UHGV virus genome: UHGV-0191955
Strand: one strand, 5' to 3'
DNA: 28,411 nt
Origin: a virus
Shown: positions 2,172-28,411 of the stretch, piece after piece
How the letters are laid out: every line of letters begins with the position of its first letter
Position numbering within the stretch: the stretch's first letter is position 1
Program-made: the position numbers and the translations under genes
The notes under the pieces: model-generated
What the model was told of the DNA's origin: nothing
What the model saw: the letters and a program-made list of their open reading frames with translations, nothing else
Database searches by the model: none

Positions 2172-2326
2172 CACGATGTCGAACCTCTAAAACGAATGCC
2201 TATGATGTAAAGCGAGCAGGCGGTACGAAGACCTTGAATCGATGTTGTAAATCGAATATGGGAGAGATTGGCTGTTGGAAAAAATCTTTTCGTATCGCCT
2301 GCATTTTTATCATAGACCTGACGACT

Positions 2327-10405: not shown

Positions 10406-10409
10406 TATT

Positions 10410-12172: not shown

Positions 12173-12284
12173 TTCCTCCTATAATCCTCCATTATTCAAC
12201 TTTATTCTAAAATTGCGACAAAGTTTCCTTTTAGAGGCTGTTCGGTGGATTAAGTTTGCTCCCGAAGAATCAATAACGAGATTT

Positions 12285-13484: not shown

Positions 13485-13487
13485 GGT

Positions 13488-14024
13488 ATGACGGTAATCG
13501 AGATGCGGGAGCCGCCGATCGCGCTGGAACTCGCCAAGCAGCACCTGCGGGTAGGCAGCGCCGCCCATGACGATACTTTGATCGCTGCGAAACTCGACAT
13601 GGCCGTTGCCGTGGCGGAGGATATGACCGGACGGATCATTCGGGAGAAGAGGGTACGGTTCGACGTACCGATCCCTTCCGACGCTCCCATCGTCCGTCTG
13701 CCCGTCCCTACGACGTGCATCGAGCGGCTCTCCGTCTCTCGAACCATCATTCCCGAATCCGACTACACGCTCTTGAAGGACGACTACGACCCGATGCTGA
13801 TTGCCGAACCGCAGTACAGCGGACAGCCCGCAACGGTTACGGCCGTCGTCGGCTACGATCGCGATAATATACCTCCGGCAATCAAGGCGGCTATTCTCTT
13901 GATCTTGGGCACGCTCTACGACAACGAATCGGACAACCTCGTCGGCCGCTCCGTCTCGGAGCTGTCGCTTACGGCCGAGAAACTCCTGCTTCCGTGGCGG
14001 GTAACCCCTTACGGCGATGTTTGA
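13488..14024 (+). CDS. head-tail connector (gp6-like) protein
   Basis: N-terminal 'LELAKQHLRVGSAAHDDTLIAAKLDMAVAVAEDMTGR' is characteristic of gp6-like head-tail connector proteins. Directly downstream of the capsid gene. Confidence 0.75.
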   Translation: MTVIEMREPPIALELAKQHLRVGSAAHDDTLIAAKLDMAVAVAEDMTGRIIREKRVRFDVPIPSDAPIVRLPVPTTCIERLSVSRTIIPESDYTLLKDDYDPMLIAEPQYSGQPATVTAVVGYDRDNIPPAIKAAILLILGTLYDNESDNLVGRSVSELSLTAEKLLLPWRVTPYGDV

Positions 14025-14334
14025 CACGCGAATCGAAATTCTCGAATACACCGAGGAGCGGGACGAGTACAACGACCTCACGAAAACGCTCCGGCGCGTC
14101 GCCGTCTGCTACGCCCAGCGTACCGAGAACGGCGGTCGGGAGAACCTCTACGCTGGACGCATCGCCCACGAGAACGAAACGGTCTATACGATCCGTTGGC
14201 AACCCGACCTGCGTCCCGATATGGTCGTTCGCGACGAGGGGTATCTGCGGAAGATAATTTCGATCCACGAGGATGGACGCCGATGGCGCCTGCACCTCAA
14301 ATGCCGGAAGAGCGATGCTGACGATCGAGGTTGA
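14017..14334 (+). CDS. head closure / head-tail joining protein
   Basis: 105 aa, overlaps the previous gene by 8 nt. 'TIRWQPDLRPDMVVRDEGYLRKIISIHEDGRRWRLHL' resembles the head-tail joining family. Confidence 0.65.
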   Translation: MFDTRIEILEYTEERDEYNDLTKTLRRVAVCYAQRTENGGRENLYAGRIAHENETVYTIRWQPDLRPDMVVRDEGYLRKIISIHEDGRRWRLHLKCRKSDADDRG

Positions 14335-14839
14335 AGATTATGCCGCAGCCAAGCGGATTCTGGACGAACTGCCGAACACGATGCAGAAGCGGATGCTGCT
14401 TGTAGCTCTGCGCGCTTCGGCCAAACCGATGTTGCAATCGGCACGGAGCAAAGTCCCCGTCCGCACGGGCAAGCTGAAGAAGCAGCTGCGCACGGTGCGC
14501 TACAAGGACCGCAACGCTTCGAAGTCGGAGGTGGCCATCGCCGTGAAGCCGGTCTTCGAACGCACGAAGAAAAAAGGCGTCGTAAACGAATACTACGGCA
14601 AGTTCATCCACGAGGGAACTGCCGACCCTCGCACCTCGAAAAAGGGCAAACTGCTGGTATTCGACGATGCGCAGGGCAAAAAGGTCTTCGTCCGCAACGT
14701 CAGGGGCATCCGGCCGACACCTTATTTGGAGCAGGCTTATACGGAAAACTCCGAACGCACGGCGACGATCTTCGGCGACGAGTTGGCTGCGGCAGTCGAG
14801 AAGTTCGTGAATAAAAACTTCGCACCGGTATCGAAATGA
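14315..14839 (+). CDS. HK97 gp10-like tail component
   Basis: ATG at 14315 inside the longer ORF. 'VPVRTGKLKKQL' is typical of the gp10 family. Stop overlaps the next start. Confidence 0.6.
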   Translation: MLTIEVEDYAAAKRILDELPNTMQKRMLLVALRASAKPMLQSARSKVPVRTGKLKKQLRTVRYKDRNASKSEVAIAVKPVFERTKKKGVVNEYYGKFIHEGTADPRTSKKGKLLVFDDAQGKKVFVRNVRGIRPTPYLEQAYTENSERTATIFGDELAAAVEKFVNKNFAPVSK

Positions 14840-15192
14840 CGGATTTCAAGAAGCAGCTGATCGTGCTTTTGGAGCGTGAGATTCCAGAATTGGCGGATAG
14901 GATCCAAGCCGGGGCGGTCGATGCCCGGACGCCTGCGCCTTTCGCCGCGTTCTCCGTTCCGGAGGAGACGCCCGTAAGGACGTTGCACGGCATCGCCGGC
15001 TACCGGACGATGTTCGAGGTCGCGGTCTACGACAGCAAGTTCTCCGGTGCGGAACACCTCAAGCGTCGGGCGATCGCCGCCTTGGAGGGTGCGGAGTTCG
15101 ACGGCAAACGCAGCCGCTTCGTCTCTTCGGCGACGGAATACTACGCGGACTACGACCTGCACGGTGCGACGATGTCATTCAGAATCATATAA
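14836..15192 (+). CDS. hypothetical tail-completion protein
   Basis: 118-aa ORF in the conserved slot between gp10-like and tail tube genes. Function by position only. Confidence 0.45.
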   Translation: MTDFKKQLIVLLEREIPELADRIQAGAVDARTPAPFAAFSVPEETPVRTLHGIAGYRTMFEVAVYDSKFSGAEHLKRRAIAALEGAEFDGKRSRFVSSATEYYADYDLHGATMSFRII

Positions 15193-15209
15193 CTACAAAA
15201 CGATAACTT

Positions 15210-15650
15210 ATGCCTGAAACTTACGGAAACAAACAGGTCGTCCAAGGCGAGGACATCATCCTCTTGGTGGACGATAAGACGACGCTCCACGCCACGACGC
15301 ACACGCTGAAGGTGGACTTGGAGATGAAGGAGCTGCGCACGAAGGATACCGACGGCAAGGAGAAGTGGCCGGGCGATGTCTCGTGGTCGGTGGACGGCGA
15401 CGGGCTGGTGGTCATCGACGATTCGATCGAGAACAGCCATACCGCCGAGGAGGTTCTCGACCTGGTACTTAGGAAAAAACTCGTCGATGTGGTCGTCAAG
15501 TCGCCGCTCACGGGACTCGCGAAGATGTACACGGGCAAAGCCTACATCACGACCTTTTCGCTCTCGACGCCTGCGGGCGACAACGCCTCTTACAGTTATT
15601 CGCTTACCGGCAGCGGCAACCTGACGCCGGCAGACAAACCTGAATCCTGA
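15210..15650 (+). CDS. putative major tail (tube) protein
   Basis: 146 aa, acidic, beta-rich-looking. Position immediately upstream of the chaperone frameshift pair. Confidence 0.5.
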   Translation: MPETYGNKQVVQGEDIILLVDDKTTLHATTHTLKVDLEMKELRTKDTDGKEKWPGDVSWSVDGDGLVVIDDSIENSHTAEEVLDLVLRKKLVDVVVKSPLTGLAKMYTGKAYITTFSLSTPAGDNASYSYSLTGSGNLTPADKPES

Positions 15651-15655
15651 CCGCT

Positions 15656-16015
15656 ATGAAAGAGATTATCATTCAAGGCTCTCCGCGTCCGATCCACTTC
15701 GGATTGCGCGCCATCGACGAATTCGTCAAGCAGCGCGGTGCGGAGTTCGGGCAGACGGTCGCTTCGACTGATGCCCTCGGATCGTTGGACAGCATCGTCG
15801 CGCTGACCGCTACGGGACTCAACGAGGGCGCACGGCGTGCCGGCAGCGACCGCCGCTACACCGAAGACGAAGTGTGGGACATCTTCGACGAGGATCCGTC
15901 GCTCATCCTCGCCGTCTCGGGACTCTTCGTCGAGAGCATCGCGCCGCTGACGGATAAGTTGGGCGACCTCTCAAAAAACGGGAAACGCCCGACGACGGGG
16001 AGCCGCAAGCGGTAA
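15656..16015 (+). CDS. tail assembly chaperone (G-like, zero-frame product)
   Basis: 119-aa ORF containing slippery heptamer A_AAA_AAC at 15973-15979. The -1 frame is open from that point to 16338. Confidence 0.6.
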   Translation: MKEIIIQGSPRPIHFGLRAIDEFVKQRGAEFGQTVASTDALGSLDSIVALTATGLNEGARRAGSDRRYTEDEVWDIFDEDPSLILAVSGLFVESIAPLTDKLGDLSKNGKRPTTGSRKR

Positions 16016-16338
16016 CCTACGAGCGATGGTTCGCCATCGCCGTCGGGCAGATGGGACTGGCACCCGAAGCCTTCGAACGGCTGACGCCCGCAGAGTTCAT
16101 CTACGCGTGGCTCGGCTGGGCGAAACACGAGGGCGACAGGCAGCGGCAGGCATGGGAACGCGAACGGTGGGCGGTATGGGTTGCGACCTGCATCCAGCTC
16201 GACCGCAAAGACCGCCGCCCGATGACCGAGATGTTCCCGCTGCCGTGGGAGGGGCTGACGGCTCCCTCCAAACAAGAACCGACCATGCAGGAACGCATGG
16301 AACGAATCGAAGAAATGAAACGATGTATCCGAAAATAA
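15656..16338 (+). CDS. tail assembly chaperone GT-like fusion product via -1 frameshift
   Basis: The -1 frame (ORF-track 16051..16338) has no stop across the overlap with the G-like ORF and would join at the A_AAA_AAC heptamer. This is the canonical G/GT arrangement of tailed phages. Confidence 0.5.
15973..15979 (+). other. candidate -1 programmed ribosomal frameshift slippery site (A_AAA_AAC)
   Basis: Heptamer fits the X_XXY_YYZ rule in the zero frame of the chaperone gene, with the downstream -1 frame open. Confidence 0.5.
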
Positions 16339-16832
16339 CCCTGATTATCCTGACGATCGCCGCTGCCGGCTGCTCTCCGCTCCGAAGTACGCGATCCGAG
16401 CGGCACGAGACGCTCGCTATCACCGACTCGACCCTTACGATGCTGTTCCGGCAGGAGTTCGAGCGGCAGATCGGAACGCTCCGCCGGACCGTCGTGGAGT
16501 TTTATCCGCCGGCGGAATATCCGGAACCGAGCGACGAACGACTGCCGAATCCGACCGATACGCTCCGCGCCGTTCTTCCGCCTCCGAAGATTCCGGCGAC
16601 GAGTGCTTCCCGACAGCCGGTCAAACGCATCTCCTATACCGAGGTATCGATGCAGAATGACCGAACTATCCTTATCGACAGCATTTCGCATAGCCGCATC
16701 AACACGGCAGCCCGCAACGACGTGCAGGAGCAGACCGACGAGCAACCATCCTCCGGTGTCGCGTGGCTCAAATGGGCGACGGCGCTCGTCGCACTGACGC
16801 TTCTGCTGCTCTTATTCCTCAAACTCCGATAA
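16323..16832 (+). CDS. putative lipoprotein with C-terminal membrane anchor
   Basis: ATG at 16323. Signal peptide with lipobox-like 'TIAAAGCS' and a C-terminal hydrophobic helix 'WATALVALTLLLLLFL'. The Arg-rich N-terminal extension in the ORF track was discarded. Confidence 0.55.
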   Translation: MYPKITLIILTIAAAGCSPLRSTRSERHETLAITDSTLTMLFRQEFERQIGTLRRTVVEFYPPAEYPEPSDERLPNPTDTLRAVLPPPKIPATSASRQPVKRISYTEVSMQNDRTILIDSISHSRINTAARNDVQEQTDEQPSSGVAWLKWATALVALTLLLLLFLKLR

Positions 16833-16842
16833 CCGAACCCAT

Positions 16843-17625
16843 ATGGCAAGATTGAAAACTCCGATTTCATACTATGGCGGCAAGCAGATGCTTTTGAAGC
16901 ATATCCTGCCGCTGATTCCCGAACATACGCTCTACACGGAAGCCTTCTGCGGCGGCTGCGCCGTGCTGTTCGCCAAGCCGCCCGCGCAGTGCGAAGTCAT
17001 CAACGACACGAACACCGAATTGGTGAACTTCTACCGCGTGGCGCAGACCCAGTATGCGGCACTCAAGGCGATGATCGACGCGACGCTCCACAGCCGCGAG
17101 ATACACGCGCACGCACGGCATATCAACGAGCATCCGTCGTTCTTCACGCCCGTCGAGCGGGCTTGGGCTGTATGGGTCTGCACGAAGTTGGGCTTCGCCT
17201 CGATGATCGACGGAACGTTCGGCTACGACCGCAGCGGTACGACGACGCTGAAACTCCGCAATGCGAAAGAGGCCTTCACCGAGGAGTTGTGCGGACGCCT
17301 CGGCCGCGTTACGGTCGAGTGCGAGGACGGCATCGATGTCATCCGCCGCTACGACTGTCCCGAGGCGTTCCACTTCGTCGATCCGCCCTATGTCGGCAGC
17401 GACTGCGGACACTACAACGGTACGTTCGACGAGGAGGATTTTTCGAGGCTGCTCGACACGCTTGCAACGGTCGAAGGGAAGTTCATGCTCACGATGTTTC
17501 CGCACGAGAAGATCGAACGCCTCGCCGCCCGGCACGGCTGGACGATCCATCGGCTCGACCGCACCATCACCGCCTCGAAAGTTTCCCGCCGCCGGCAGGA
17601 GGAGTGGATTACGACGAACTACTGA
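16843..17625 (+). CDS. Dam-like N6-adenine DNA methyltransferase (D12 class)
   Basis: 'ISYYGGK' N-terminal motif, 'EAFCGGCAV' AdoMet motif and catalytic 'DPPY' in 'FVDPPYVGS'. No adjacent nuclease. Confidence 0.85.
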   Translation: MARLKTPISYYGGKQMLLKHILPLIPEHTLYTEAFCGGCAVLFAKPPAQCEVINDTNTELVNFYRVAQTQYAALKAMIDATLHSREIHAHARHINEHPSFFTPVERAWAVWVCTKLGFASMIDGTFGYDRSGTTTLKLRNAKEAFTEELCGRLGRVTVECEDGIDVIRRYDCPEAFHFVDPPYVGSDCGHYNGTFDEEDFSRLLDTLATVEGKFMLTMFPHEKIERLAARHGWTIHRLDRTITASKVSRRRQEEWITTNY

Positions 17626-17632
17626 TACCGAC

Positions 17633-18408
17633 GTGGGTACATTCGCTTACGATAACCCCGCTTACATCGCTTCGTGCTCGTTCGGCAAGGATTCGATCGC
17701 TACGATCCTCCTTGCCCTCGAATATGGCGAGCCGCTCGATGCCGCTGTCTTTTCGGAGGTGATGTTCGACCATCGGCGCAATATCAGCGGCGAGATGCCC
17801 GAACACATCGAGTGGATCTATTCGACGGCGATTCCGCGTCTTGCCGCCTTGGGCGTACGGGTCGATGTCGTCCGTTCGGAGAAAGACTATCTTACGTTAT
17901 TCCATACGGTCATAGGGAGCAGTACGCATAAGGGTATGCTGCGCGGCTGGCTCATCGGCGGCAAGTGCTGCGCCAATCGCGACCTCAAAATCCGGCCTAT
18001 ACATCGCTATTATGCCCGTTATCGAGAGCAAGGCATCGTGCAGTACGTCGGCATCGCGGCCGACGAACCGAGACGCCTCGCGCGGATGCAGGAAAAGGGT
18101 ATAACCGTAAAACGAGTCTGCTCGCCAAGTACGGGTACACCGAGGCGGACGCCCGACGCAAGTGCGAAGAATACGGTCTGCTGTCGCCTCTCTACCGCAC
18201 CTCGCATCGGGGCGGTTGCTGGTTCTGCCCCAACTGTCGCATTCCGGTCTTCGCCGAACTGCGCCGCCGCCATCCTGAATTGTGGCGTGAACTGCAACTG
18301 CTCTCGAAGGTCGGAAATAAGTCCTCCGAAGGTTTCAAATACGGGCTGACTTTCGAGGAGGTCGAGCGGCGGATGGATCTCTTCGAACACTCACCGACGC
18401 CATTCTAA
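17633..18408 (+). pseudogene. PAPS-reductase-like (PP-loop) protein, frameshifted
   Basis: N-terminal part in one frame carries PP-loop-like 'CSFGKDS' and 'GIAADEPRRLARM'. C-terminal part in the -1 frame carries 'HRGGCWFCPNC'. The frame switch falls near 18092-18115 in an A4/G3 run. Start assigned to the GTG at 17633. Confidence 0.55.
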
Positions 18409-18410
18409 AC

Positions 18411-18509
18411 AACTGAAAATAAATACGATAATAGTCGCCGAATAACTTGCGTGTTCCGAATAACGATGTTATGTTTGTCATGCAATAAACAACTAAAATA
18501 GAGCGAATT
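18411..18509 (+). promoter_or_regulatory. repeated promoter element, copy A
   Basis: ~100-bp element shared by five loci. TTG at 18447-18449 and TATGTTTG at 18470-18477 with 20-nt spacing. Ends at the ATG of the downstream ORF. Confidence 0.65.
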
Positions 18510-18813
18510 ATGAAAAAGACAGTCATCGTGAAAGGCGAGCGTCGCAAGGTAGAATTCGAGTATCGAGTAATCGATAAATTGGTTAGTTGCCAAAAAGCAA
18601 ACGATGGGATAAGCAGGGGGATGGCTTCCGGTCGAAACCTATTACCACGAAGCCGTTGCCATTATCGACGGTGTAGAATATCCGAGCGTTCGACGCTGGC
18701 ATACCAATGGCGGCAGGTATTCGGAACAGTTCTTTTACAACGGACATTTCTATGATTCGTATAAGAAAATGATCGAGCGCATTCTCGAATCGGCAGACGA
18801 AAGTAACTCTTGA
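18510..18813 (+). CDS. small cassette protein A, apparently frameshifted
   Basis: ORF 18510..18755 reads 'MKKTVIVKGERRKVEFEYRVIDKLV...'. After a G5 run (18616-18620) the +1 frame gives a protein-like 'WLPVETYYHEAVAIIDGVEYPS...ERILESADESNS' to a stop at 18811-18813, while the original frame turns Arg-rich and low-complexity. Confidence 0.45.
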
Positions 18814-18833
18814 ACCTCGATGGAAGCAGATGG

Positions 18834-18863
18834 AAAAACAGGCTCCGTACGGAGCCTGTTTCG
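18834..18863 (+). terminator. perfect palindrome terminator hairpin
   Basis: AAAAACAGGCTCCGT/ACGGAGCCTGTTT: an A-tract, a perfect GC-rich palindrome, then a T-tract, a bidirectional intrinsic-terminator shape, directly after cassette A. Confidence 0.6.
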
Positions 18864-18886
18864 ATCTTTCGCTGTAAGCGTAAATA

Positions 18887-18997
18887 ACTGAAAATAAATA
18901 TGATAATAGTTACCGGATAACTTGTGTGTTCCGAATAACGATGTTATGTTTGCAGTACGATAAACAACTGAATAATAGACGATTAAAACACCCGAAC
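18887..18997 (+). promoter_or_regulatory. repeated promoter element, copy B
   Basis: Same element as copy A with substitutions; contains CTTG...TATGTTTG; followed by ATG at 18998. Confidence 0.65.
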
Positions 18998-19420
18998 ATG
19001 ACAAGTGCACAGGCAAAACAGATCGCATCGAACTATATGCGGCAGCAGAGCGATTATGTATTTTCGGCGGTAACGGTTAAAAGCCTCGCTCCGGCGAACG
19101 GACCAGTCAAGGTGTGGCTCACCACCGAAGACGACTACGGGGACGAACTGATCGTCGAGGTCGAGATGGACCCGCAGTCGAATGAGATCCGCTGGAAGAA
19201 GATCTGCAACACGGGACGCCTATCCGAATATCTGAAGCCGGCTACTCGGATCGATAAACTTTCGGCGGGGCAGCGCTTCCGGCTGCAAGGCGACTGCGTG
19301 GTTTACGAGTTCGTGGACAATGTAAAGGACCGCAGCAATATTCCCTATATCATCCGACGGGCGGACCGATCCGGTTGCGTATCGAGAGTCGGATGGCAGG
19401 AAGTTTTTCCTATCGAGTAA
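18998..19420 (+). CDS. small cassette protein B (140 aa)
   Basis: ATG immediately after promoter copy B. No motif recognised. Confidence 0.55.
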   Translation: MTSAQAKQIASNYMRQQSDYVFSAVTVKSLAPANGPVKVWLTTEDDYGDELIVEVEMDPQSNEIRWKKICNTGRLSEYLKPATRIDKLSAGQRFRLQGDCVVYEFVDNVKDRSNIPYIIRRADRSGCVSRVGWQEVFPIE

Positions 19421-19429
19421 CCGATAACC

Positions 19430-19456
19430 GCGCACCTTGCCGAAAGGCAGGTGCGC
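19430..19456 (+). terminator. stem-loop with GAAA tetraloop
   Basis: GCGCACCTTGCC-GAAA-GGCAGGTGCGC, one bulged T, located after cassette B. Confidence 0.4.
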
Positions 19457-19472
19457 ATAAAACGATACGACG

Positions 19473-19703
19473 ATGAAACTCCGCCGAACGAAAACCGGAA
19501 CTTACACGATTGCTGGTATTACCGCAACTCAATATCGCACCCTTGCGGCAGTGCTTATGACCGCCGATGAGCGTTGCTTCGACGAACAGGACGAGGACGG
19601 CAACTATTACAGCAACGACGATTTCGTCTGCTCGCTCGATGGCGATGAACGGGTGGCTTTGCGACAGGTGTGCGACGCACTTCGGCAACGTGTAAAATAT
19701 TGA
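19473..19703 (+). CDS. small acidic protein (76 aa)
   Basis: ATG ORF between cassettes B and C. Not preceded by the repeated promoter element. Confidence 0.45.
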   Translation: MKLRRTKTGTYTIAGITATQYRTLAAVLMTADERCFDEQDEDGNYYSNDDFVCSLDGDERVALRQVCDALRQRVKY

Positions 19704-19796
19704 AAATAAATGCGATAATAATTAATGGAAAACTTGCGTGTCCCGAATTATGATGCCATCTTTGCAGTGCAATAAACAACTAATATAGAGTGTATT
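19698..19796 (+). promoter_or_regulatory. repeated promoter element, copy C
   Basis: TATTGAAAATAAATGCGATAATA...CTTGCGTG...TTTGCAGTGCAATAAACAACTAATAT. The -7 box is degenerate here (TCTTTG). Confidence 0.55.
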
Positions 19797-20126
19797 ATGA
19801 GTACAAGAGCAAGAATCGGAGTAAGACTTCCAGACGGAAAAATCAAAAGCGTCCATATATGGCGGGACGGACATCCCGATACGTTGGGCGAAACGTTGTC
19901 AGCGCACTACAATACATTGGAATCGGCAATGGCACTGGTCGAACGAGGCAATATAATCGATGTGGAAGCGCGTCTCGAAGAGTGCCGGTTCGAGAAATCG
20001 AATGAACGGTACGATACCGAGCCTCGGGTTTATAAAACGGTTGCCGCCTACGAACGAGAAATCGGAGGAGGATATATGTTACAAATATCTCTATCGGGAC
20101 GGCAAGTGGGAATACCGGGCGGTTGA
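19797..20126 (+). CDS. small cassette protein C (109 aa)
   Basis: ATG immediately after promoter copy C. No motif recognised. Confidence 0.55.
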   Translation: MSTRARIGVRLPDGKIKSVHIWRDGHPDTLGETLSAHYNTLESAMALVERGNIIDVEARLEECRFEKSNERYDTEPRVYKTVAAYEREIGGGYMLQISLSGRQVGIPGG

Positions 20127-20202
20127 TTGGTAACCGACTTCCGATCGTAAGGAACGAATGCTCCGAGCCTCCGACGGGAGGCTTCCCCTCGTTTCGTCCA
20201 TT

Positions 20203-20247
20203 CAGTTGTTTATTGCGACCGGAGCCGTGCATCGTGTACGGCTCCGG
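20203..20247 (+). terminator. CAGTTGTTTATTGC box plus 10-bp GC hairpin (CCGGAGCCGT/ACGGCTCCGG), copy 1
   Basis: Perfect stem followed by TTT. The 14-mer is the reverse complement of GCAATAAACAACTG found in the cassette leaders. Confidence 0.5.
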
Positions 20248-20321
20248 TTTCCGTTCAAAGGCGGGACATTGTTTCTGCAACGGATCTTCGGCAGCATGTA
20301 TATTTACCATATGGAATAGGC

Positions 20322-20440
20322 TTGATAAATAGTTGGTATTCTTTGAATTAAGTTACCGATAAACTTGCGTGTCCCGAATAATGATGTTATGTTTGCAGTG
20401 CAATAAACGATTGAACTGCAATCTATTAAACGACTCGATT
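20322..20440 (+). promoter_or_regulatory. repeated promoter element, copy D
   Basis: 5' half diverged; retains CTTGCGTGTCCCGAATAATGATGTTATGTTTGCAGTGCAATAAACGATTG; followed by ATG at 20441. Confidence 0.6.
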
Positions 20441-20659
20441 ATGAATACTGCGAATCGAAAAAGAACGGAAATCGACGCCGAACTCGACCGGTTGGAGGTC
20501 GAATTCGAGAAGAACCGCAAGGAGATGCAACGCCTTGCCGACGAGAACAGACGTGCCGGCAACCGCTATGGCGAATTATCGAATGCGAATCACGACATCA
20601 ACAACCGGATCCTCACATTGCTCGCAGAGCGTTGGGAATCGGAAGAGACGACCGATTGA
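20441..20659 (+). CDS. small coiled-coil cassette protein D (72 aa)
   Basis: ATG after promoter copy D. Charged, heptad-like sequence 'IDAELDRLEVEFEKNRKEMQRLADENRR'. Confidence 0.5.
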   Translation: MNTANRKRTEIDAELDRLEVEFEKNRKEMQRLADENRRAGNRYGELSNANHDINNRILTLLAERWESEETTD

Positions 20660-20675
20660 CGAAACGAGAGACGGA

Positions 20676-20703
20676 CCCCGCCGAGAAATATTCCTCGGCG
20701 GGG
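20676..20703 (+). terminator. 10-bp perfect stem hairpin (CCCCGCCGAG/CTCGGCGGGG)
   Basis: Read directly; lies after cassette D. Confidence 0.45.
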
Positions 20704-20734
20704 TAAAACCCGAAACCGGAAAACACATAAAGAG

Positions 20735-20926
20735 ATGAAAACGATGAATGCAAAGGTAGGCGACAAGATTCGCATTATCCATCTTCGCGACGAGGACAGC
20801 CGTTACGACGGCAAGGAGGGAACGATCGAGTTCATCGACTCGCTCGGACAACTGCACGGCACATGGGGCGGGTTGGCAGTCATTCCCGAAGTCGATCGGT
20901 TCGTAATTATCGAGAAAGCGGAATAA
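20735..20926 (+). CDS. small protein (63 aa)
   Basis: ATG ORF without the repeated promoter element. Alternative ATG at 20744. Confidence 0.45.
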   Translation: MKTMNAKVGDKIRIIHLRDEDSRYDGKEGTIEFIDSLGQLHGTWGGLAVIPEVDRFVIIEKAE

Positions 20927-20977
20927 TCGCCTGCAACGATAATGCTCGGTTCCGCCATCTTTTTATAGCATCTAATC

Positions 20978-21076
20978 TATTGAAAATAAATACGATAATA
21001 GTCGCCGAACAACTTGCATGTTCCGAATAACGATGTTATGTTTGCAGTACGATAAACAACTAAAAAAGAGCGAATT
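20978..21076 (+). promoter_or_regulatory. repeated promoter element, copy E
   Basis: Closest copy to A. Contains CTTGCATG...TATGTTTG; followed by ATG at 21077. Confidence 0.65.
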
Positions 21077-21364
21077 ATGAGAACGAACATCGAACGGTTT
21101 TTAGAGAGATTCCCGAAGAATGCCACGAATTGGGCGCAGGCGACGGACGAGGTGCGCGATATGGCTCACAAGGCTCGCGAATTGTTGGAAGAGTACGAAG
21201 GCGTAATCGTCGAACCGGTAAATTTCCGGACTATCGAGACCCCGGCCGAGTGGAATACCGAAGGTCGCGAGTTCATCCTGACGAATTTCGATCGCATGGC
21301 GGATAGGACCAAAGAGCGTTTCTACGACTACTTCCGCGAGTGGTTCGAAGGCGAAGAGGAATAG
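21077..21364 (+). CDS. small acidic cassette protein E (95 aa)
   Basis: ATG immediately after promoter copy E. No motif recognised. Confidence 0.55.
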   Translation: MRTNIERFLERFPKNATNWAQATDEVRDMAHKARELLEEYEGVIVEPVNFRTIETPAEWNTEGREFILTNFDRMADRTKERFYDYFREWFEGEEE

Positions 21365-21372
21365 ACCGACGC

Positions 21373-21409
21373 ACGGATGCTCCCCGTTCAAGCTGCGGGG
21401 AGCATCCGT
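21373..21409 (+). terminator. 14-bp perfect stem hairpin (ACGGATGCTCCCCG/CGGGGAGCATCCGT)
   Basis: Read directly; 9-nt loop; directly after cassette E. Confidence 0.5.
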
Positions 21410-21471
21410 CCTAACCCCGGAGTAGGGTTGCACACGTCGTCTCTTTCGATAGGAAATCTATCGTGCTCCAT

Positions 21472-21515
21472 CAGTTGTTTATTGCAGCCGGAGCCGCATC
21501 ATGTGCGGCTCCGGC
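21472..21515 (+). terminator. CAGTTGTTTATTGC box plus 12-bp GC hairpin (GCCGGAGCCGCA/TGCGGCTCCGGC), copy 2
   Basis: Second copy of the element at 20203-20247, with the same 14-mer and a related stem. Confidence 0.5.
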
Positions 21516-21589
21516 AATCTCATTATAGAGGGACTTTGTTTCAGCGATGAGGCCTTTTGCCATTTTACCTTTATTCCCGCGACAAAGGT

Positions 21590-24454
21590 ATGGCGATTTT
21601 TGGTCTGAAATATTACGCAGACCTTCGCTCGAAGTACAAGGGCGTCTTGTGGCGCGTAGAGATTTCGGAGCGGGGGTACGCAGGTCCGTCGGAGGAGATG
21701 ACCTTCGACGGCGGTGCACCGTTGCAGATCACGTGGGAGAAACGGGGCGACGAGTTCTACGTGCCGGTCAAGGCTTCGGAGGCGACCATCAACATCCTCT
21801 GCAAGGAGAATTTCCATTACCTGGCTCTGTTCACTTCCGATCCCCGTTATTTTCGCGTCTCGATTTTCCGCAATCGGCAGCTCTATTGGCGGGGCTACGT
21901 CACCTCCGACCTCTACTCCGAGAACTTCACGGCTCCGCCTTATACCGTCACGATCAAGGCCGTGGACGGCTTCAATCTCTTGTCGAGCATTCCGTTCCGC
22001 GACCTCTTACATATCGGCATCGCGGGCAGACGATCGCTGTGGGAACTGCTCTCCTCCTGCATCGACCTGTTGGAGTTGGACCTCGATACGGCGGACTGGA
22101 TGGATCTGTATGCCGAAGGGATGGACGAGAACGCCTCTCCGCTTCGTCAAACCTATATCGACCTCGAACGGCTCTACTACGTCTACGAGCAGCCTACCTA
22201 TCGCGACATCCTCGAACTGTGCCTGCGTCCGTTCGCCGGGCAAATCTTCCAGTCGAACGGAGCCCTGCATATCCGCCGCGCCGTGTCGCTCTACCGAACT
22301 GCCCGTCCCGTGAATTTCTACCGCGTCGGCACGGAGTATCCCGTCGGACGGATCGTTACGGGCAGCGGGCTGCGGCTCGTGATCCATACCGGTGCGCAGG
22401 TCGTCGCGTCGGCGGCACGCGAGCGCATCGACGGTATGTGGACGGGCGACCTGCACATCGAGGGAAGTTCGACGCTCGACATCGTCCCTGCGCTGCGCAA
22501 GGTCTCGGTCGATGTAAAGAACAAGAGCCTCGACAACCTGATCGCCCGCATCGGGTTCTACGATCCCGACGCTTGGATGGATCCGCACGGCTTCGTCTCC
22601 GTGAAGAGCGGGGAGGAACTCTATTTCAGCGGCGAGGATGCCTATCGGAGTGAGGAGGTCGTAACTCGGGGGTTTCCCGTCGAGCAGTGCAACTTCCCGC
22701 TCGTATGGGAGTTCGGGTTGCAGACCTACCATCGGGAGTGGGGACTGGGCATTTACCGCCCGAACGAAAGCGTCGATGTCGCGGTGCATTACGGCGTCCG
22801 CATCGTCGGCGAAAAGGCGACATACAGCCTCACCGAGAGCGGCTCGTGGGTGCAGTCTTCCGACGGGGAGATCGCGAGTACGGTCAAGACCGGCAACGAG
22901 CAGAATATGAAGATCGAGATCGACGGCATCCCCTGCGACGGCGAGTGGCGGTTCTTCATCCGGCAGACGCTCATCGGCAAGATCACGACCTATACCGACC
23001 GTTTCGGCAATCCGAGCGGCCGCACCTCGGGCTATCAGGAGAGCGCCGCGTTCCGCAAGATGACGCTCTCGATCGATGCGGGCGACAGCTACGACAAGGG
23101 ATTGCGCTACGAATCGCTCGTCGATCCCGCGAACAATGTCGATATGTCCGTAACGCTTCCCGTGAGCGATATTCCCGCCATTCCGAACGACCGGCTGCTC
23201 TATGCGCTCTACTACCTCGATGTCGCCGGCAATCCCACGCGCATCTGGCATACGAAAGGTCGGAACGACTACGACACGCTGGTCGGTCATATCGTGCAGG
23301 GAGCATTGCGGTACAAGCAGCTGCCGAGCCGGCGCATCACGGGCGAGATCTTCACGGGGCAGCATATCGATATGAATACGGTGGTTCGGGACGACAAGTT
23401 CCTGAACGCCGCCTATTACCTGAACTCCATCGAACTGAATGCCCTCGACGACTCCTACAACAGCGAACTCACGGAGATGCCGCATCTGCTCGCGACGGAG
23501 AGACCGCCGGAGGGCGACGACTGCATAGCGGTCGCAACGCTGTCCTTCACGGTCGGCAAGGCGATCCGCTGCCTGAACCGGCTGCTGCTCCAGTCCGCCG
23601 ATAAAAAGACGGTCTATGCCTTCGACACCGCTACGCGGCAGGTGCGGGAGATCTACCGCAGCACGACGTCCTTCGAGATGTACGAAGCGGACGAGGGATT
23701 CGTCGCGGTGGATGGGAAAGAGGTCCGCTACCTCGACTATCGCGGTACGGTCGAACGGATATATACCCCGCCGGAGGAGTACCGCAACGTCGCGACCTAC
23801 ATGGACGGGTATATCCATATCCTGAAATCTTACCGGCAGTATATCGGTCCGCGGGGCGGCAATGCCGGCGGACGCAGCGCCCGCACGGCAGAGGACGAGG
23901 ATCCGAACTACCGCACCTATCGTTACCTCTCGCGCCCGGAGTGCAAGTACGTTTCGCCCGACGCCTCGACCGGCTATCGCGGACGGGGATATGCCTACGA
24001 GGGTACGCCGATGTCGGGTGCGATCCTCGCCCTGCGGCGCACGGAAAATACGATCGTCGTGAACACCTCGCATGGCGCCTATCTGCACGACAAACGGTTC
24101 CACCAGCCCTGCAAGATGCTGCAATTCGCTGCGGGCGAGCAGATCGTCACCGTCTCCGACAACTATATCGGCATCAACGCCGACGATATGCTGTGGTTCT
24201 ACCGGCGGGATTCGATTACCGAGCGGACGCTGCTCCGGCGGTTGGGACGCTGGGCGGATCATGCCGACCATACGATGAGCGAGGTCGTGCACTCCTACGA
24301 CGACGGCATCTTCATCCGGAACTTCCGCGACGACACGACGACCGACGTTCGGAACGTCGCCGGCTGGGGCGAGACCATCATGGGATTATTCTTCATCTAC
24401 GGCGACCTCTATATCGTGCGCGAACGGGCGATTTACAAATTCATTCCTGAATAA
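21590..24454 (+). CDS. large hypothetical protein (~954 aa), possibly virion-associated
   Basis: Long GC-rich ORF with phage-like codon usage. ATG at 21590 preferred over the TTG at 21557. No motif recognised. The long minus-strand ORF opposite it is treated as antisense noise. Confidence 0.55.
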   Translation: MAIFGLKYYADLRSKYKGVLWRVEISERGYAGPSEEMTFDGGAPLQITWEKRGDEFYVPVKASEATINILCKENFHYLALFTSDPRYFRVSIFRNRQLYWRGYVTSDLYSENFTAPPYTVTIKAVDGFNLLSSIPFRDLLHIGIAGRRSLWELLSSCIDLLELDLDTADWMDLYAEGMDENASPLRQTYIDLERLYYVYEQPTYRDILELCLRPFAGQIFQSNGALHIRRAVSLYRTARPVNFYRVGTEYPVGRIVTGSGLRLVIHTGAQVVASAARERIDGMWTGDLHIEGSSTLDIVPALRKVSVDVKNKSLDNLIARIGFYDPDAWMDPHGFVSVKSGEELYFSGEDAYRSEEVVTRGFPVEQCNFPLVWEFGLQTYHREWGLGIYRPNESVDVAVHYGVRIVGEKATYSLTESGSWVQSSDGEIASTVKTGNEQNMKIEIDGIPCDGEWRFFIRQTLIGKITTYTDRFGNPSGRTSGYQESAAFRKMTLSIDAGDSYDKGLRYESLVDPANNVDMSVTLPVSDIPAIPNDRLLYALYYLDVAGNPTRIWHTKGRNDYDTLVGHIVQGALRYKQLPSRRITGEIFTGQHIDMNTVVRDDKFLNAAYYLNSIELNALDDSYNSELTEMPHLLATERPPEGDDCIAVATLSFTVGKAIRCLNRLLLQSADKKTVYAFDTATRQVREIYRSTTSFEMYEADEGFVAVDGKEVRYLDYRGTVERIYTPPEEYRNVATYMDGYIHILKSYRQYIGPRGGNAGGRSARTAEDEDPNYRTYRYLSRPECKYVSPDASTGYRGRGYAYEGTPMSGAILALRRTENTIVVNTSHGAYLHDKRFHQPCKMLQFAAGEQIVTVSDNYIGINADDMLWFYRRDSITERTLLRRLGRWADHADHTMSEVVHSYDDGIFIRNFRDDTTTDVRNVAGWGETIMGLFFIYGDLYIVRERAIYKFIPE

Positions 24455-24464
24455 GTGCGAAACT

Positions 24465-24839
24465 ATGGAAACACTATCCATCATTCTGAACTTCATTCTC
24501 GCCAGCGGACTGGCGGGAACGATCCTTTTTTTCAACGCAAAGAAGCGCAAGGAGAACGCGGACGCCGACTCCGCCGAATTAGCAAACACGGAGAAGGTCG
24601 TGGCGATCCAGTCCGAGCAGATCACGCGGCTGGACGGGCGCGTGGAGAAACTCGAAGAGAAGGTCGGCAAACTCGAAATCATCATCGAGCACAAGGACGT
24701 GGAGATCGACCGCAGCCGCATCGTCATCCGGCAGGCGTACAAATGCGAAACGCCGCCCGAACATTGTCCGGTCTTGCTCAAAAGAGCCGAGTTGGAACGC
24801 AGGCGCAAAGAGAGCGACGAAAATAACCGAAAATCATAA
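24465..24839 (+). CDS. membrane protein with N-terminal helix and coiled coil (holin/spanin-like architecture)
   Basis: Hydrophobic helix 'LSIILNFILASGLAGTILFF' followed by heptad-like 'RLDGRVEKLEEKVGKLEIIIEHKD'. A functional call is not possible from sequence alone. Confidence 0.45.
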   Translation: METLSIILNFILASGLAGTILFFNAKKRKENADADSAELANTEKVVAIQSEQITRLDGRVEKLEEKVGKLEIIIEHKDVEIDRSRIVIRQAYKCETPPEHCPVLLKRAELERRRKESDENNRKS

Positions 24840-24970
24840 AGCAATGAGCAGAGGATTGAGTAATTGTAACCGACGCCGCGGAGCGAGAGCAGAACCCGCT
24901 TGCGGGCTCTGCCGAGCCGCAAGGAGGAAACGATTGCTACAATGACATTCCAGAACGAATAACAGATATT

Positions 24971-25393
24971 ATGAACGAGAAAACTTTGCCGAGAGGGATG
25001 CGCAATCGCAACCCGGGCAATATCCGCCGATCGGCGACGAAGTATCTGGGCGAAGTTGCGCCCTCGCGCGATGCCGCATTCAAGCAGTTCGAGACGATGG
25101 CGTGGGGCTACCGCGCGATGTTCGTGCTGCTGGACTCCTACTCCCGTAAAGGTTATCGGACAATCCGGCAAATGATCTCGCGCTACGCTCCGCCCATCGA
25201 GAACCATACCGAGAACTATATTCGTTGCGTGTCCGAATGGTCGGGCATCTGCGCCGACGAACCATTGGATACGCAGGCGGGCGAAACGATGATCCCTATC
25301 GTGGCGGCTATGTCGCGCATGGAAAACGGCTGTCCGACGGTACTATCGGACGTCGAGGCAGGCTGGACGCTTTATCTGCAACACAAACCCTAA
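24971..25393 (+). CDS. hypothetical protein (140 aa)
   Basis: ATG ORF directly upstream of the tape measure gene. Contains 'NRNPGNIRRS'. Function not recognised. Confidence 0.45.
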   Translation: MNEKTLPRGMRNRNPGNIRRSATKYLGEVAPSRDAAFKQFETMAWGYRAMFVLLDSYSRKGYRTIRQMISRYAPPIENHTENYIRCVSEWSGICADEPLDTQAGETMIPIVAAMSRMENGCPTVLSDVEAGWTLYLQHKP

Positions 25394-25399
25394 ACAGCC

Positions 25400-27757
25400 A
25401 TGTCCCGGAGAATCGCCGATTTACTTATAAAGATCGGAGCCGACTCGTATGAGTTCCAGCAGAAGGCGCAGCAGGTCGAGAAAGGGCTCGGCTCGCTCGA
25501 AAAGAAGCTGACCTCCGTCGGCAAGTCGCTCTCGTTGAAACTCTCCGCGCCCCTTGCGGCATTGGGCGGCGTGTCGCTGCACCTGGCCGATGTGCAGGCC
25601 AAAGCCGAAGCGAAGGTGCAGCAGGCGCTCAAGGTTACGAATCAGGCCGTCGGTTACAACTTCCGGCAGTTGGCCGACTACGCTTCGGAGTTGCAGGGCA
25701 AGACGATTTTCGGCGACGAGACGATCCTCGACAAATCCACCGCCCGCCTGTTGGCTTTTACCAATATCACGGGCGAAAACTTCAAGCGCACGCAGGCGTT
25801 GGCATTGGACCTCGCCACGGCGTTGGAGATGGATTTAGGTTCGGCGTCGTTGCAATTGGGCAAGGCGCTCTCCGATCCCACGACGAAGCTCTCGTCGCTG
25901 TCGCGTGCCGGCATCACCTTCTCCAAGGAGCAGACGGAAGTAATCAAGAAACTCGCCGAGACGGGCGACATAGCCAAGGCACAGGCGATGATCCTCGACG
26001 AATTGGAGCGCAAGTTCGGCGGGCAGGCCGAAGCCGCCGCACGGACGGGACTCGGAGCCGTGCAGCAACTCAAGAATGCGTGGGGCGACTTCCTCGAACG
26101 GATCGGTGCGGCCATCATGCCTTTCGCGACGAAGATAGCAGGTGCGCTCTCGACAGTCGTACAGATGCTGCAATCGATGTCGCCGGCGATGATGCAGACG
26201 ATCGTCGTTGTAGCGGGGCTGGTCGCAGCGGTCGGTCCCCTTTCGCTCGGAATCGGTGCCGTGATCAAGGTGCTGCCGATGCTGGCGGCGGGATTTACGG
26301 CATTGCTGTCGCCCGTCGGGTTGATTATGGCGGCGGTCCTCGCGCTCGGTGCGGCGTTCGCCTATGCCCGCATCCAAAAGCAGAAGATGATCGACGAGAT
26401 GGCCGAGGTCGAATCGCTCGACGAGCTCGAACGCAAGTTGCAGGAGAATATCGCCGAGCAGAAAGAGATCATCGCCACGACGACCAAGACACGGATGGTT
26501 CCGAATTTCGGGGGATTAGTCGCCGGTTTTACTTTGCAGAAAGTACCCGACGAATCGAAACTCGCACCCCTGCGTAAGGAGTACGACCTGCTGACGGCTG
26601 CTATCGAGAAGAAACGCGAAACGGAGAAGAAGGCGGCCGAGGCGCAGGCCGAACTGGACAAGGTAATGGACGAAGCACGCAAGCAGACCGAGGAGTTGAT
26701 GAAGTCCATCGCCGGAACCAACGCGCAGACGGAACAAAGCACGGGCATCATCGGTAAATTGCAGGCGCGGATCGAGGCTCTCGAAAAGAAGAAACTGCTG
26801 CCCGAATCGACCGTCGAGGATATCGCCGCGGCGAACGCCGAGATCGAGAAGCTGCAAAAAGAGCTGGAGCGGATCAGGAATATCAAGCCCGAAGACCTGG
26901 AACCCGTCGTCAAGATGGACGGTATTTTGCCCGAAGGCTTCGAGTTAGAGTTGCCGGCGCCGAAACTCAAAATGGGCGATCTGAAACCCGTAGCATTGCA
27001 ATATGCGCAGCAGATGCAGACGATATTCGGCGCGGTGCGCGAAGGGTTGTACGGCTGGGCGGACGACAACAGCGCATACTTGCAGGAGCACGTCGCCGAT
27101 ACGGTCTCGATGGTTGAGAATTACACGACGGCACTGACGGCGAAGGGCTGGTCGTTCTCGGCAGCATTGGAGCATGTCCACGCCACGATTGCGGAGGTGA
27201 TGACGCGCTTCGATCAGCAGGTGTCGAAGTTTATGGCCGACAGCATCGTCGCAGCGGCGGAGGCTATCGGGCAGATCATTGCCGGCGATTTGGGATTCGG
27301 AGGGCTGATGAAAGCGATCCTGACGCAGTTCGCCTCTTTTCTGAAAAATATCGGCTCGCAACTCATCGAGTTCGGCGTGATGATCATCGCCTTCAAGTCT
27401 GCACTGAAATCCGTCCTCGCCAATCCGTGGGCGGCGATCGCCATCGGAGCAGCGATGGTCGCAGCGGCAACCGTGATGACGGCGCTCATCAACAAGAATG
27501 CGGAGAAGAGTGTGCCGGCATTGGCCAACGGCGGTCTGGCATACGGTCCCACCTATGCGATGGTCGGAGACAACCCCAATGCCGGCACGGATCCCGAAGT
27601 CATCGCACCGCTGTCGAAGTTGCAGGCGATGCTCCCGACGGGTGGCAGCCCGCAGAATCTACGAATAACCCTCGGCGGTCAATTGACTGCCAAGGGTCGG
27701 GACTTGGTGTATGTTCTCGGAAAAGAGAACTTCAAGTCACAGGTGTTGGGTGGATGA
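25400..27757 (+). CDS. tail tape measure protein
   Basis: 785 aa. Ala/Leu/Gln-rich coiled-coil N-terminus, conserved tape-measure core 'LGKALSDPTTKLSSLSRAGITFSKEQTEVIKKLAETGDIAKAQAMILDELERKFGG', central hydrophobic segments, and a Gly/Ala-rich C-terminus. Confidence 0.85.
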   Translation: MSRRIADLLIKIGADSYEFQQKAQQVEKGLGSLEKKLTSVGKSLSLKLSAPLAALGGVSLHLADVQAKAEAKVQQALKVTNQAVGYNFRQLADYASELQGKTIFGDETILDKSTARLLAFTNITGENFKRTQALALDLATALEMDLGSASLQLGKALSDPTTKLSSLSRAGITFSKEQTEVIKKLAETGDIAKAQAMILDELERKFGGQAEAAARTGLGAVQQLKNAWGDFLERIGAAIMPFATKIAGALSTVVQMLQSMSPAMMQTIVVVAGLVAAVGPLSLGIGAVIKVLPMLAAGFTALLSPVGLIMAAVLALGAAFAYARIQKQKMIDEMAEVESLDELERKLQENIAEQKEIIATTTKTRMVPNFGGLVAGFTLQKVPDESKLAPLRKEYDLLTAAIEKKRETEKKAAEAQAELDKVMDEARKQTEELMKSIAGTNAQTEQSTGIIGKLQARIEALEKKKLLPESTVEDIAAANAEIEKLQKELERIRNIKPEDLEPVVKMDGILPEGFELELPAPKLKMGDLKPVALQYAQQMQTIFGAVREGLYGWADDNSAYLQEHVADTVSMVENYTTALTAKGWSFSAALEHVHATIAEVMTRFDQQVSKFMADSIVAAAEAIGQIIAGDLGFGGLMKAILTQFASFLKNIGSQLIEFGVMIIAFKSALKSVLANPWAAIAIGAAMVAAATVMTALINKNAEKSVPALANGGLAYGPTYAMVGDNPNAGTDPEVIAPLSKLQAMLPTGGSPQNLRITLGGQLTAKGRDLVYVLGKENFKSQVLGG

Positions 27758-27766
27758 TGCGATGAT

Positions 27767-28411
27767 TTATTCCGAAAATAATTTTTCAAATTCAGTAAAA
27801 TCATTTACGATAAGCCCACGAGGGTTGTTTTGCTCCCATTTTAATAGATTGGGTTCTGTTTTTCCGGTATTTCTCGAGTTAATATCTCTACATATATATT
27901 CACTATATTTCTGGAAACTCTCAATTTGTTTAAGATCAGGATAGCTGGCAAAAAATCGCATATTTGTTTCCCAATCCCGCATCGATCTTATACCGGTAGC
28001 GAATCCGTTATTTGCTAATTGGATATTAACATTTGCAGTATGGGATAGATTTTGAATTTCCGGAAATCTATTAATAATATGTCTTCCTAATATCAAACAA
28101 TGAGGAATTCCGCAAAATGCAAAATTATTTTTCTGTTTCCATGCATTAAACAGAAAATATTCGATATGCGGCATCTCGTCGATCGGATAAATTTCGGCGT
28201 AAAAACAATTGCTGAAATGATCTCGAATTAAAAAATTGACAATGTGACGTTTGCCGGTTCTCTCATAATTATTCCAATTAATATCGAATTTTTTTAGTTG
28301 ATATTTGATCTCTCCATTTTTTAACAAATAATAATTTTGAGAAATCGACATATTTAATTGATGTACTTGATTGGGGTAGTCGCTTTTGTATTTAAAATGA
28401 TAGCCGATCAT
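27767..28411 (-). CDS. hypothetical protein, AT-rich, possibly 5'-partial at window edge
   Basis: 214 codons on the minus strand running to the last base of the window, convergent with the tape measure gene. Sharp drop in GC. No motif recognised. Confidence 0.5.
   Translation of the reverse strand: MIGYHFKYKSDYPNQVHQLNMSISQNYYLLKNGEIKYQLKKFDINWNNYERTGKRHIVNFLIRDHFSNCFYAEIYPIDEMPHIEYFLFNAWKQKNNFAFCGIPHCLILGRHIINRFPEIQNLSHTANVNIQLANNGFATGIRSMRDWETNMRFFASYPDLKQIESFQKYSEYICRDINSRNTGKTEPNLLKWEQNNPRGLIVNDFTEFEKLFSE

Follow-up and report, generated by a model that had tools for sequence, protein, structure and literature searches.

In tailed phages the genes for the tail assembly chaperones, G and the frameshift product GT, normally adjoin the gene for the tape measure protein (TMP). 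This adjacency is among the most dependable annotation landmarks and is often used to call both genes. The virus genome UHGV-0191955 raises the question of how this junction can be broken. In the window, by which we mean the whole stretch of 28,411 nucleotides (nt) that was analyzed, 9061 nt separate the end of the chaperone pair at position 16338 from the start of the TMP gene at 25400. The pair, the TMP gene and the genes listed in between were all found where the original prediction, made from the letters alone, had put them. That prediction offered three explanations: a large accessory region inserted at the junction, a lineage that places conserved genes here, or an unrecognized structural component in the form of a protein of 954 amino acids (p954). 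The window represents the late region of an Alistipes (Rikenellaceae) prophage, a temperate siphovirus of the HK97-like kind. Taken as a whole, the 9-kb gap is probably a composite that arose when whole late-gene blocks were rearranged, with no island inserted at the junction.

Both sides of the broken junction can be identified. G gave no family match in Pfam, NCBIfam and PHROG searches; T has no Pfam or NCBIfam match either, and its sole match, phrog_16333, is a family without assigned function. The pair does have the layout of G/GT genes, that is two open reading frames (ORFs) directly downstream of the tube protein gene, with an in-phase site near the end of the first from which a −1 frameshift leads into the second. 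The slippery heptamer A_AAA_AAC lies 12 codons upstream of the G stop codon, and frame analysis showed the T frame to be open from 15958 to 16338. The remaining hallmark of such genes, a position immediately upstream of the TMP gene, is absent from the window and present in three relatives (contigs L040, L041 and L050), in which 9–12 nt separate T and TMP. A wrong TMP call, which could have dissolved the whole problem, is not what we found: besides its best match this protein hits eight further TMP families, nine PHROGs in total, and tblastn matches include the annotated TMPs of Rhodobacter, Flavobacterium and Gordonia phages. It is likewise barely credible that the gap stems from a chimeric or misassembled contig. 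Repeats in the cassette array described below could in principle mislead short-read assemblers, and the G+C content (GC) shifts abruptly at several points of the window. However, independent ENA and Logan assemblies yielded nine contigs with an identical p954 in the same context and order, five of them 50–200 kb long, and therefore the arrangement is no assembly artefact. With the strong TMP call and the same order in 24 related contigs, one of them a HiFi-assembled chromosome, this explanation has been refuted as far as sequence data can do so.

A megablast search of positions 12000–28411 against 50,697 phage records returned no match, hence no cultured close relative. Relatives are numerous in IMG/VR and in GTDB genomes, with Alistipes and other Rikenellaceae/Bacteroidales as hosts; according to member counts, the family comprises hundreds of clustered sequences in public data. 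We derived the gene orders from a tblastn synteny map of contigs from IMG/VR and from metagenome-assembled genomes (MAGs). In order A, that of the window, T is followed by a lipoprotein, a Dam-family DNA methyltransferase (Dam), variable cargo, p954, a small membrane protein, a protein of 140 amino acids (p140) and TMP. Beyond TMP lie a cargo hotspot, p712, p77, p233 (DUF285), an integrase in reverse orientation and a tRNA gene. This order was found in 24 contigs (18 from IMG/VR and six from MAGs, including the HiFi chromosome OZ007033), whose p954 identities range from 44 to 97% and whose T-to-TMP distances range from 6078 to 13031 nt. One of the contigs with the window's exact p954, L107, continues past the 214-amino-acid gene at the end of the window into p712, p77, p233 (DUF285), integrase and tRNA-Lys. 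Dam, p954, the membrane protein and p140 are kept in all relatives of this order and the lipoprotein in most. About 5 kb of the gap are thus conserved down to 44% protein identity, and the explanation that this lineage places conserved genes here holds. Of the presumed accessory region there remain about 4 kb of variable cargo, made up of a gene resembling PAPS reductases and the cassette array; the rest is conserved core.

The order is not shared by all sister prophages, a diversity that the original prediction had not foreseen; the uniform order among relatives that would have refuted that prediction is absent. In order B the head-tail genes, lipoprotein, Dam and cassettes lie on one strand and the genes from p954 through TMP to p233 on the other, with an integrase and tRNA-Asp upstream of p954. 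We found it in 10 IMG/VR and three MAG contigs and, probably, in two further MAG contigs; some of these are about 95% identical to the window at the nucleotide level, as near as the closest contig of order A. In order C, the order of the three relatives with T directly before TMP, integrase, p954, membrane protein, p140, lipoprotein, Dam and cassette form an opposite-strand block (contig 2841319695_000004). To the eye, this block would look like a lysis cassette of membrane protein, endolysin and unimolecular spanin. Because relatives thus carry the TMP segment inverted or T abutting TMP, inversions of late-gene blocks explain the gap best. A fourth order, D, with TMP to p233, p954, lysis genes, Dam, cassettes and integrase all co-directional, was considered and could not be confirmed: L080 runs from p954, membrane protein, p140, lipoprotein, Dam and cassette into a reverse integrase, and the 10 kb upstream hold unrelated low-GC genes on the minus strand. 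A decayed copy of this prophage in the cultured type strain Alistipes timonensis JC136 (L079, NZ_FNRI01000001.1) has fragmented matches to p954 and integrase in a shortened layout; it may offer a handle for experiments and is probably defective.

All four junction pairs could be read, and every junction falls at a gene boundary. From these we infer that the orders are linked by inversions, which is well supported. A single inversion that spans TMP to lipoprotein, with breakpoints at T/TMP and p140/lipoprotein, would convert C into B; T would then be followed by the lipoprotein, and TMP would lie on the other strand behind the predicted muramidase p140. If the genes from p954 through p233 were inverted next, with breakpoints between cassette and p233 end and between p954 start and integrase, B would become A; all genes would then be co-directional again, with T and TMP 9 kb apart. 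As a result of the two nested inversions the lipoprotein would abut T, p140 would abut TMP, the putative lysis cassette would be split and the tail-tip gene would come to lie upstream of TMP. The cargo of the opposite-strand, integrase-side operon of order C would likewise end up within the tail region. An explanation closer to one of those first proposed, a single accessory island (cargo genes, morons) that entered an otherwise canonical phage between GT and TMP, draws on the variability of the array and the PAPS-reductase-like gene, the lower GC of the array, its host-type promoter and hairpin per cassette, as in morons, and a gap length of 6 to 13 kb. We consider it unlikely, and the relatives lend it no support: the conserved core makes up over half of the 9 kb and includes a tail-tip structural protein and a muramidase, and the same genes form one block elsewhere in relatives of canonical order. 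Moreover, insertion cannot place TMP on the opposite strand as in the B-type relatives.

The direction of these changes is less clear. The wider siphovirus pattern argues that T/TMP adjacency would be ancestral. Several observations weigh against a simple series from C through B to A. In a neighbor-joining tree of p954, order A fills all deep clades, B appears only in the clade of the window and C is nested; this would fit an order A that is ancestral in this family, or a swap of modules by recombination, and the tree settled neither for the series from C through B to A nor for its reverse. Between close A and B genomes the integrases share only 51% identity, and the tRNA sites differ: the A-type L107 has a 434-amino-acid integrase beside tRNA-Lys(CTT) (20032–21858), the B-type prophages an integrase beside tRNA-Asp(GTC) (L063, 7640–9321; L037, 593–2297). 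The B contigs nearest the window (93–97% p954 identity; L027, 11196–12239, and L063–L065) also carry a zinc-dependent alcohol dehydrogenase (PF08240/PF00107; phrog_2640, 2e-71) as the last unit after the array, which neither the window nor its A-type relatives have. Given these differences in integrase, tRNA site and alcohol dehydrogenase, recombinational module exchange has also occurred, which argues against a clean flip between A and B. Finally, no convincing inverted repeat or microhomology was found at the inversion junctions.

The same data bear on whether a single phage alternates between A and B. The segment that runs from p954 past TMP to p233 would then act beside the integrase as an inverton of very large size, flipped by a tyrosine recombinase. 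Both orders occur among genomes about 95% identical, the integrase, a tyrosine recombinase, abuts the segment in both states, and the window encodes a second, XerC/D-like recombinase. Bacteroidales are also rich in recombinase-driven inversions. If this were true, a giant inverton in a widespread Alistipes prophage would switch TMP and the tail-tip genes between co-directional and convergent orientation relative to the head-tail operon and so control virion production or module exchange. We nonetheless hold it to be very improbable, and give little credence to a segment of about 10.5 kb that inverts recurrently or actively. No inverted repeat of at least 9 nt was found at the A-type junctions, and a 10-nt search of the B-type junctions gave two isolated short matches, which we take as chance. 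The junctions themselves differ, with alcohol dehydrogenase only in the B contigs nearest the window, an ORF6N-like gene in B (L063) and dissimilar 70-nt spacers, in addition to the divergent integrases and tRNA sites. Among the assembled contigs no sample held both states of the same phage, and the A and B members of the 95–97% group came from different samples. We also examined whether the start of all B contigs 70 nt upstream of p954 reflected assembly ambiguity at an inversion site and rejected this: in the MAG contig L063 an ORF6N-like gene precedes p954, and its stop codon falls immediately before the point where the B contigs start, so the shared start is due to provirus trimming. We therefore regard the block inversions as having produced an unusual, lineage-specific gene order rather than a programmed switch.

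Homology supports the assignment of p954 to the tail tip, as one of those components whose genes usually come right after TMP in Bacteroidota siphophages. Its residues 1–240 match phrog_23570 and, in tblastn searches, gp59 of Cellulophaga phage phi18:1 (2e-10) and gp20 of Salinibacter phage M8CR30-2. Both genes lie directly downstream of TMP, and gp59 of phi18:1 is annotated as a virion protein by tandem mass spectrometry (MS/MS) proteomics. It is because these N-terminal homologues adjoin TMP and include an MS/MS-verified virion protein, as expected of tail-tip proteins, that we favor this role, and to this extent the suspected structural component has been recognized. The protein had no Pfam or NCBIfam match and no PDB match by sequence search. 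Structure prediction, which had been proposed as a check, helped in part. The AlphaFold2 model (mean predicted local distance difference test score, pLDDT, of 63; confident at residues 320–495 and 640–954) comprises an N-terminal domain, a central β-sandwich and a C-terminal β-propeller, and full-length fold matches in BFVD include a structural protein of Cellulophaga phage phi12:1. In Foldseek searches against the PDB the propeller retrieved only generic WD40-like propellers, which name a fold and not a function. As for the fold of a distal tail protein (Dit) in the N-terminal domain, residues 1–130 reach a pLDDT of only 50–80, fold searches were dominated by the C-terminal propeller and no Dit fold emerged; the available N-terminal homologues were too alike to improve a second prediction.

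Between p954 and TMP lie two genes with predicted roles in lysis. In every A, B or C locus that extends over it, the small membrane protein, of 124 amino acids, separates p954 from p140 (59–98% identity). It has only weak family matches; we infer from its topology and position that it is a candidate holin or i-spanin-like lysis protein. Its neighbor p140 is predicted to be an Enc34-type muramidase that acts in lysis. Muralytic activity has been proven for the Enc34/PHA02564 family, which has a lysozyme-like fold (PMC8943055). In line with this, p140 matches the PDB entry 7q47, 'Endolysin' (E 7e-12), and 9vvp_L, the N-terminus of the 1295-amino-acid Gp29 (E 1.6e-16); the catalytic glutamate (Glu131 in 7q47) was read in the alignment with 9vvp_L, in which the Glu of MENG in p140 pairs with the Glu of HETG. 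The protein ends right after the catalytic domain, without the C-terminal transmembrane domain of the Enc34 enzyme, and its stop codon lies 6 nt before the TMP start. On the other side, some tape measure and ejection proteins, such as the Gp29 of 9vvp, contain domains like p140, and a p140 encoded beside TMP could be a virion-associated lysin. Downstream, the position right after TMP, before the next tail gene, is a cargo hotspot that holds minus-strand genes in relatives, for example an NgoFVII-like PLD nuclease (L028, 12454–13554) or an AbiJ-type abortive-infection gene (L027, 6241–7935).

The start of the gap holds the other putative lysis gene. By inspection, the lipoprotein has an N-terminal signal, MYPKITLIILTIAAAGC/SPL (ending AAGC/SPL), and a C-terminal hydrophobic helix, ...WATALVALTLLLLLFLKLR, and both features are kept in the C-type relative L021. 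Topology and position make it probably a candidate unimolecular spanin, of the T1 gp11 type, with a role in lysis. A spanin gene would be expected beside the endolysin gene in a lysis cassette; in the window it follows T, 8 kb away from p140, and in L021 its start overlaps the p140 stop (ATGA). Wherever A-, B- and C-type loci extend over its position, Dam is present at 73–99% identity and, by this conservation, is a core gene of the lineage. The PAPS-reductase-like gene is missing from many relatives. It has a 1-nt deletion near 18094 (GCAGGA-AAAGGG in place of GCAGGACAAAGGG in relatives L002 and L030), and the truncated ORF of 238 amino acids was called alike in the independent assemblies L107 and L108, so that it is a real pseudogene and no sequencing error. 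Judged by its sequence and distribution, this gene is decayed variable cargo.

The cassette array that follows consists of self-contained units, each with a promoter, small ORFs and a hairpin. Five copies of a repeat of about 100–116 nt are spread over 18404–21100, each preceding one or two small ORFs; its 35-nt core was found four times against zero expected. By reading, the repeat contains TTG-N20-TAtgTTTG, which is the Bacteroidetes promoter pattern. A scan for sigma-70 promoters and T-tract terminators performed no better than on shuffled sequence and was set aside. Six hairpins, folded individually, lie downstream of array ORFs between Dam and p954 (folding free energies of −19 to −31 kcal/mol, z −4.9 to −7.3). 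For the ORFs no known function was found, except for matches to DUF4314 and phrog_1987. The content of the array differs between relatives, and its GC is 0.47–0.51 against about 0.60. A hairpin together with the first half of the motif upstream of p954 (GGGACWTTGTTTC) is duplicated at 20202–20290, 5' of cassette 4, and at 21471–21545, 5' of p954, which suggests that cassettes 4 and 5 may have been added at that spot by insertion or recombination.

How could chaperones and TMP encoded so far apart still cooperate? G and GT would act on TMP as diffusible proteins, and neither adjacency nor co-transcription would be required mechanistically. Since six hairpins lie between Dam and p954, transcripts of the G/GT operon probably do not extend to TMP. 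TMP would instead be expressed from a p954 operon, without read-through from the G/GT genes, that starts at the promoter-like motif and encodes the tail-tip protein, the small membrane protein, the Enc34-type muramidase and TMP. The bipartite motif, GRGACWWWGTNTC followed by CTACCTTTAC, also precedes the p954 homologues in all three arrangements, A, B and C. It is a sign of a late operon with its own transcription start; in orders A and B this operon would also carry TMP. The persistence of orders A and B across a family of 44–97% protein identity suggests that both are functional.

The remainder of the window holds a complete HK97-like morphogenesis module (Table 1), interrupted by low-GC islands. 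Between the prohead protease and major capsid genes, the island at 9827–12172 (GC about 0.33–0.41 against about 0.58) encodes two homologues of MjaI-like restriction endonucleases (PF09568, 3.9e-65 and 2.7e-5); its minus strand carries the gene for an N6_N4 DNA methylase (PF01555, 1e-38). This island is a restriction-modification system inserted within the head module. A second island at 6220–7838 (about 0.33–0.36), between large terminase and portal, encodes a 194-amino-acid protein and a 345-amino-acid protein with a weak HATPase_c match (3.7e-5) and may be a defence or accessory insert. The XerC/D-like tyrosine recombinase (2234–3262; PF00589, 3.7e-29, and Phage_int_SAM_1) sits between an HNH endonuclease gene (1671–2171) and the small terminase gene and is not the same protein as the prophage integrase, which is encoded at the other end of the element.

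Table 1. Features of the 28,411-nt window of UHGV-0191955 and the evidence for them (+, strand as given; −, opposite strand).
Feature	Position	Strand	Evidence or remark
Small terminase	3695–4171		
Large terminase	4183–5850		
Portal	7902–9119		
S78 protease	9106–9747		
Major capsid protein	12213–13484		
Adaptor, head-closure, neck and tail-completion genes			
Major tail (tube) protein	15210–15650	+	PF06199 Phage_tail_2, E 2e-15; phrog_1407, E 4e-23
Tail assembly chaperone G	15656–16015	+	directly 3' of tube protein; 39–95% identity in relatives
T part of GT, −1 frame	15958–16338	+	phrog_16333, E 1.7e-8; kept in relatives
Slippery heptamer A_AAA_AAC	15973–15979	+	X_XXY_YYZ phase of the G frame
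Lipoprotein with C-terminal membrane anchor	16323–16832	+	start overlaps T end
Dam-family N6-adenine DNA methyltransferase	16843–17625	+	PF02086, 1.2e-20; phrog_56, 1e-62; TIGR00571, 2e-19
PAPS-reductase-like gene	17633–18408	+	phrog_424: N-terminal part 1e-18, C-terminal part 1.3e-8
Cassette array	18404–21522	+	repeat families D1 and D2; promoter units, small ORFs, hairpins
Small ORFs of the array	18510–18755, 18998–19420, 19473–19703, 19797–20126, 20432–20659, 20735–20926, 21077–21364	+	
Promoter-like motif GGGACTTTGTTTC...TACCTTTA	21530–21573	+	5' of p954; one match in the window, zero expected
p954, tail-tip structural protein (supported by homology)	21590–24454	+	phrog_30639, 2.7e-19; phrog_23570 'virion structural protein', 1.1e-10
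Membrane protein, 124 amino acids	24465–24839	+	N-terminal transmembrane segment and coiled coil, read in the sequence
p140, Enc34-type (PHA02564) peptidoglycan hydrolase domain	24971–25393	+	phrog_873 'endolysin', 3.3e-42
TMP, 785 amino acids	25400–27757	+	phrog_27166 'tail length tape measure protein', E 9.6e-56
Low-GC gene, 214 amino acids	27767–28411	−	no family match

The presented findings imply that the linkage of chaperone and TMP genes can be broken: in an abundant family of human-gut Alistipes prophages, of 44–97% protein identity and common in metagenomes, G/GT and TMP lie 6–13 kb apart or on opposite strands. Annotation that relies on synteny will miss or mislabel chaperone or TMP genes in such phages. 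The arrangement also argues that a TMP expressed from another operon far away can still be served by the chaperones. The three orders form a natural series for the study of rearrangements in phage late regions, and likely roles could be proposed for 'hypothetical' proteins of Bacteroidales phages, namely a tail-tip protein, an Enc34-type lysin and a spanin-like lipoprotein. A literature search found no description of this Alistipes phage group or of this gene order with its broken chaperone–TMP junction.

Compared with the canonical siphovirus tail module of lambda, HK97 or phi18:1 (gp55–gp59), the window has the same components: a PF06199 tube protein, in-phase G/GT genes, TMP and a protein with a gp59-like N-terminal domain. 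Their order, however, is scrambled, with the lipoprotein after GT, the gp59-like protein upstream of TMP, TMP after the muramidase and 9061 nt between GT and TMP; in the B-type relatives GT and TMP are even on opposite strands. Displaced tail genes have reportedly been seen before in a siphovirus, the mycobacteriophage Marvin, whose minor tail genes are said to lie on the other genome arm and whose chaperone–TMP junction we presume to be kept. Both phages would then break the synteny of virion genes, but here the chaperone–TMP junction itself is broken, and one family shows three orders.

The Enc34-type lysis cassette consists of a holin, a PHA02564 endolysin and spanins (PMC8943055). The p140 protein belongs to the same family of catalytic domains, and the C-type relatives place it between a small membrane protein and an overlapping lipoprotein. 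Unlike the Enc34 enzyme, p140 has no C-terminal transmembrane domain, and unlike Rz1 the lipoprotein is also anchored at its C-terminus, resembling a unimolecular spanin. In the window, moreover, the putative cassette is split, with the lipoprotein after T and the membrane protein and p140 before TMP.

The cassette array resembles the moron arrays of phage genomes, of which the lambdoid morons are the example, and the promoter-bearing PeSL cassettes said to occur in T4-type phages: small ORFs are preceded by a repeated promoter element and followed by a hairpin, and content varies between close relatives. It differs in its promoter of the Bacteroidetes type (TTG-N20-TAnnTTTG) and in its position inside the tail gene region. 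The array of the C-type relatives is more conventional in this respect, as it lies in an operon with the probable lysis genes and the integrase, opposite to the head-tail genes.

Invertible tail-fibre segments are known from phages Mu (G segment) and P1 (C segment), and Bacteroidales carry invertons. The family described here shares with them a tail-gene segment that occurs in both orientations among close relatives and adjoins a recombinase gene. Its segment is, by comparison, about 10.5 kb long and includes TMP, has no convincing inverted repeats and no interchangeable junctions, and its adjoining recombinase is the prophage integrase. In all these comparisons the parts of the phage are ordinary and their order is unusual.

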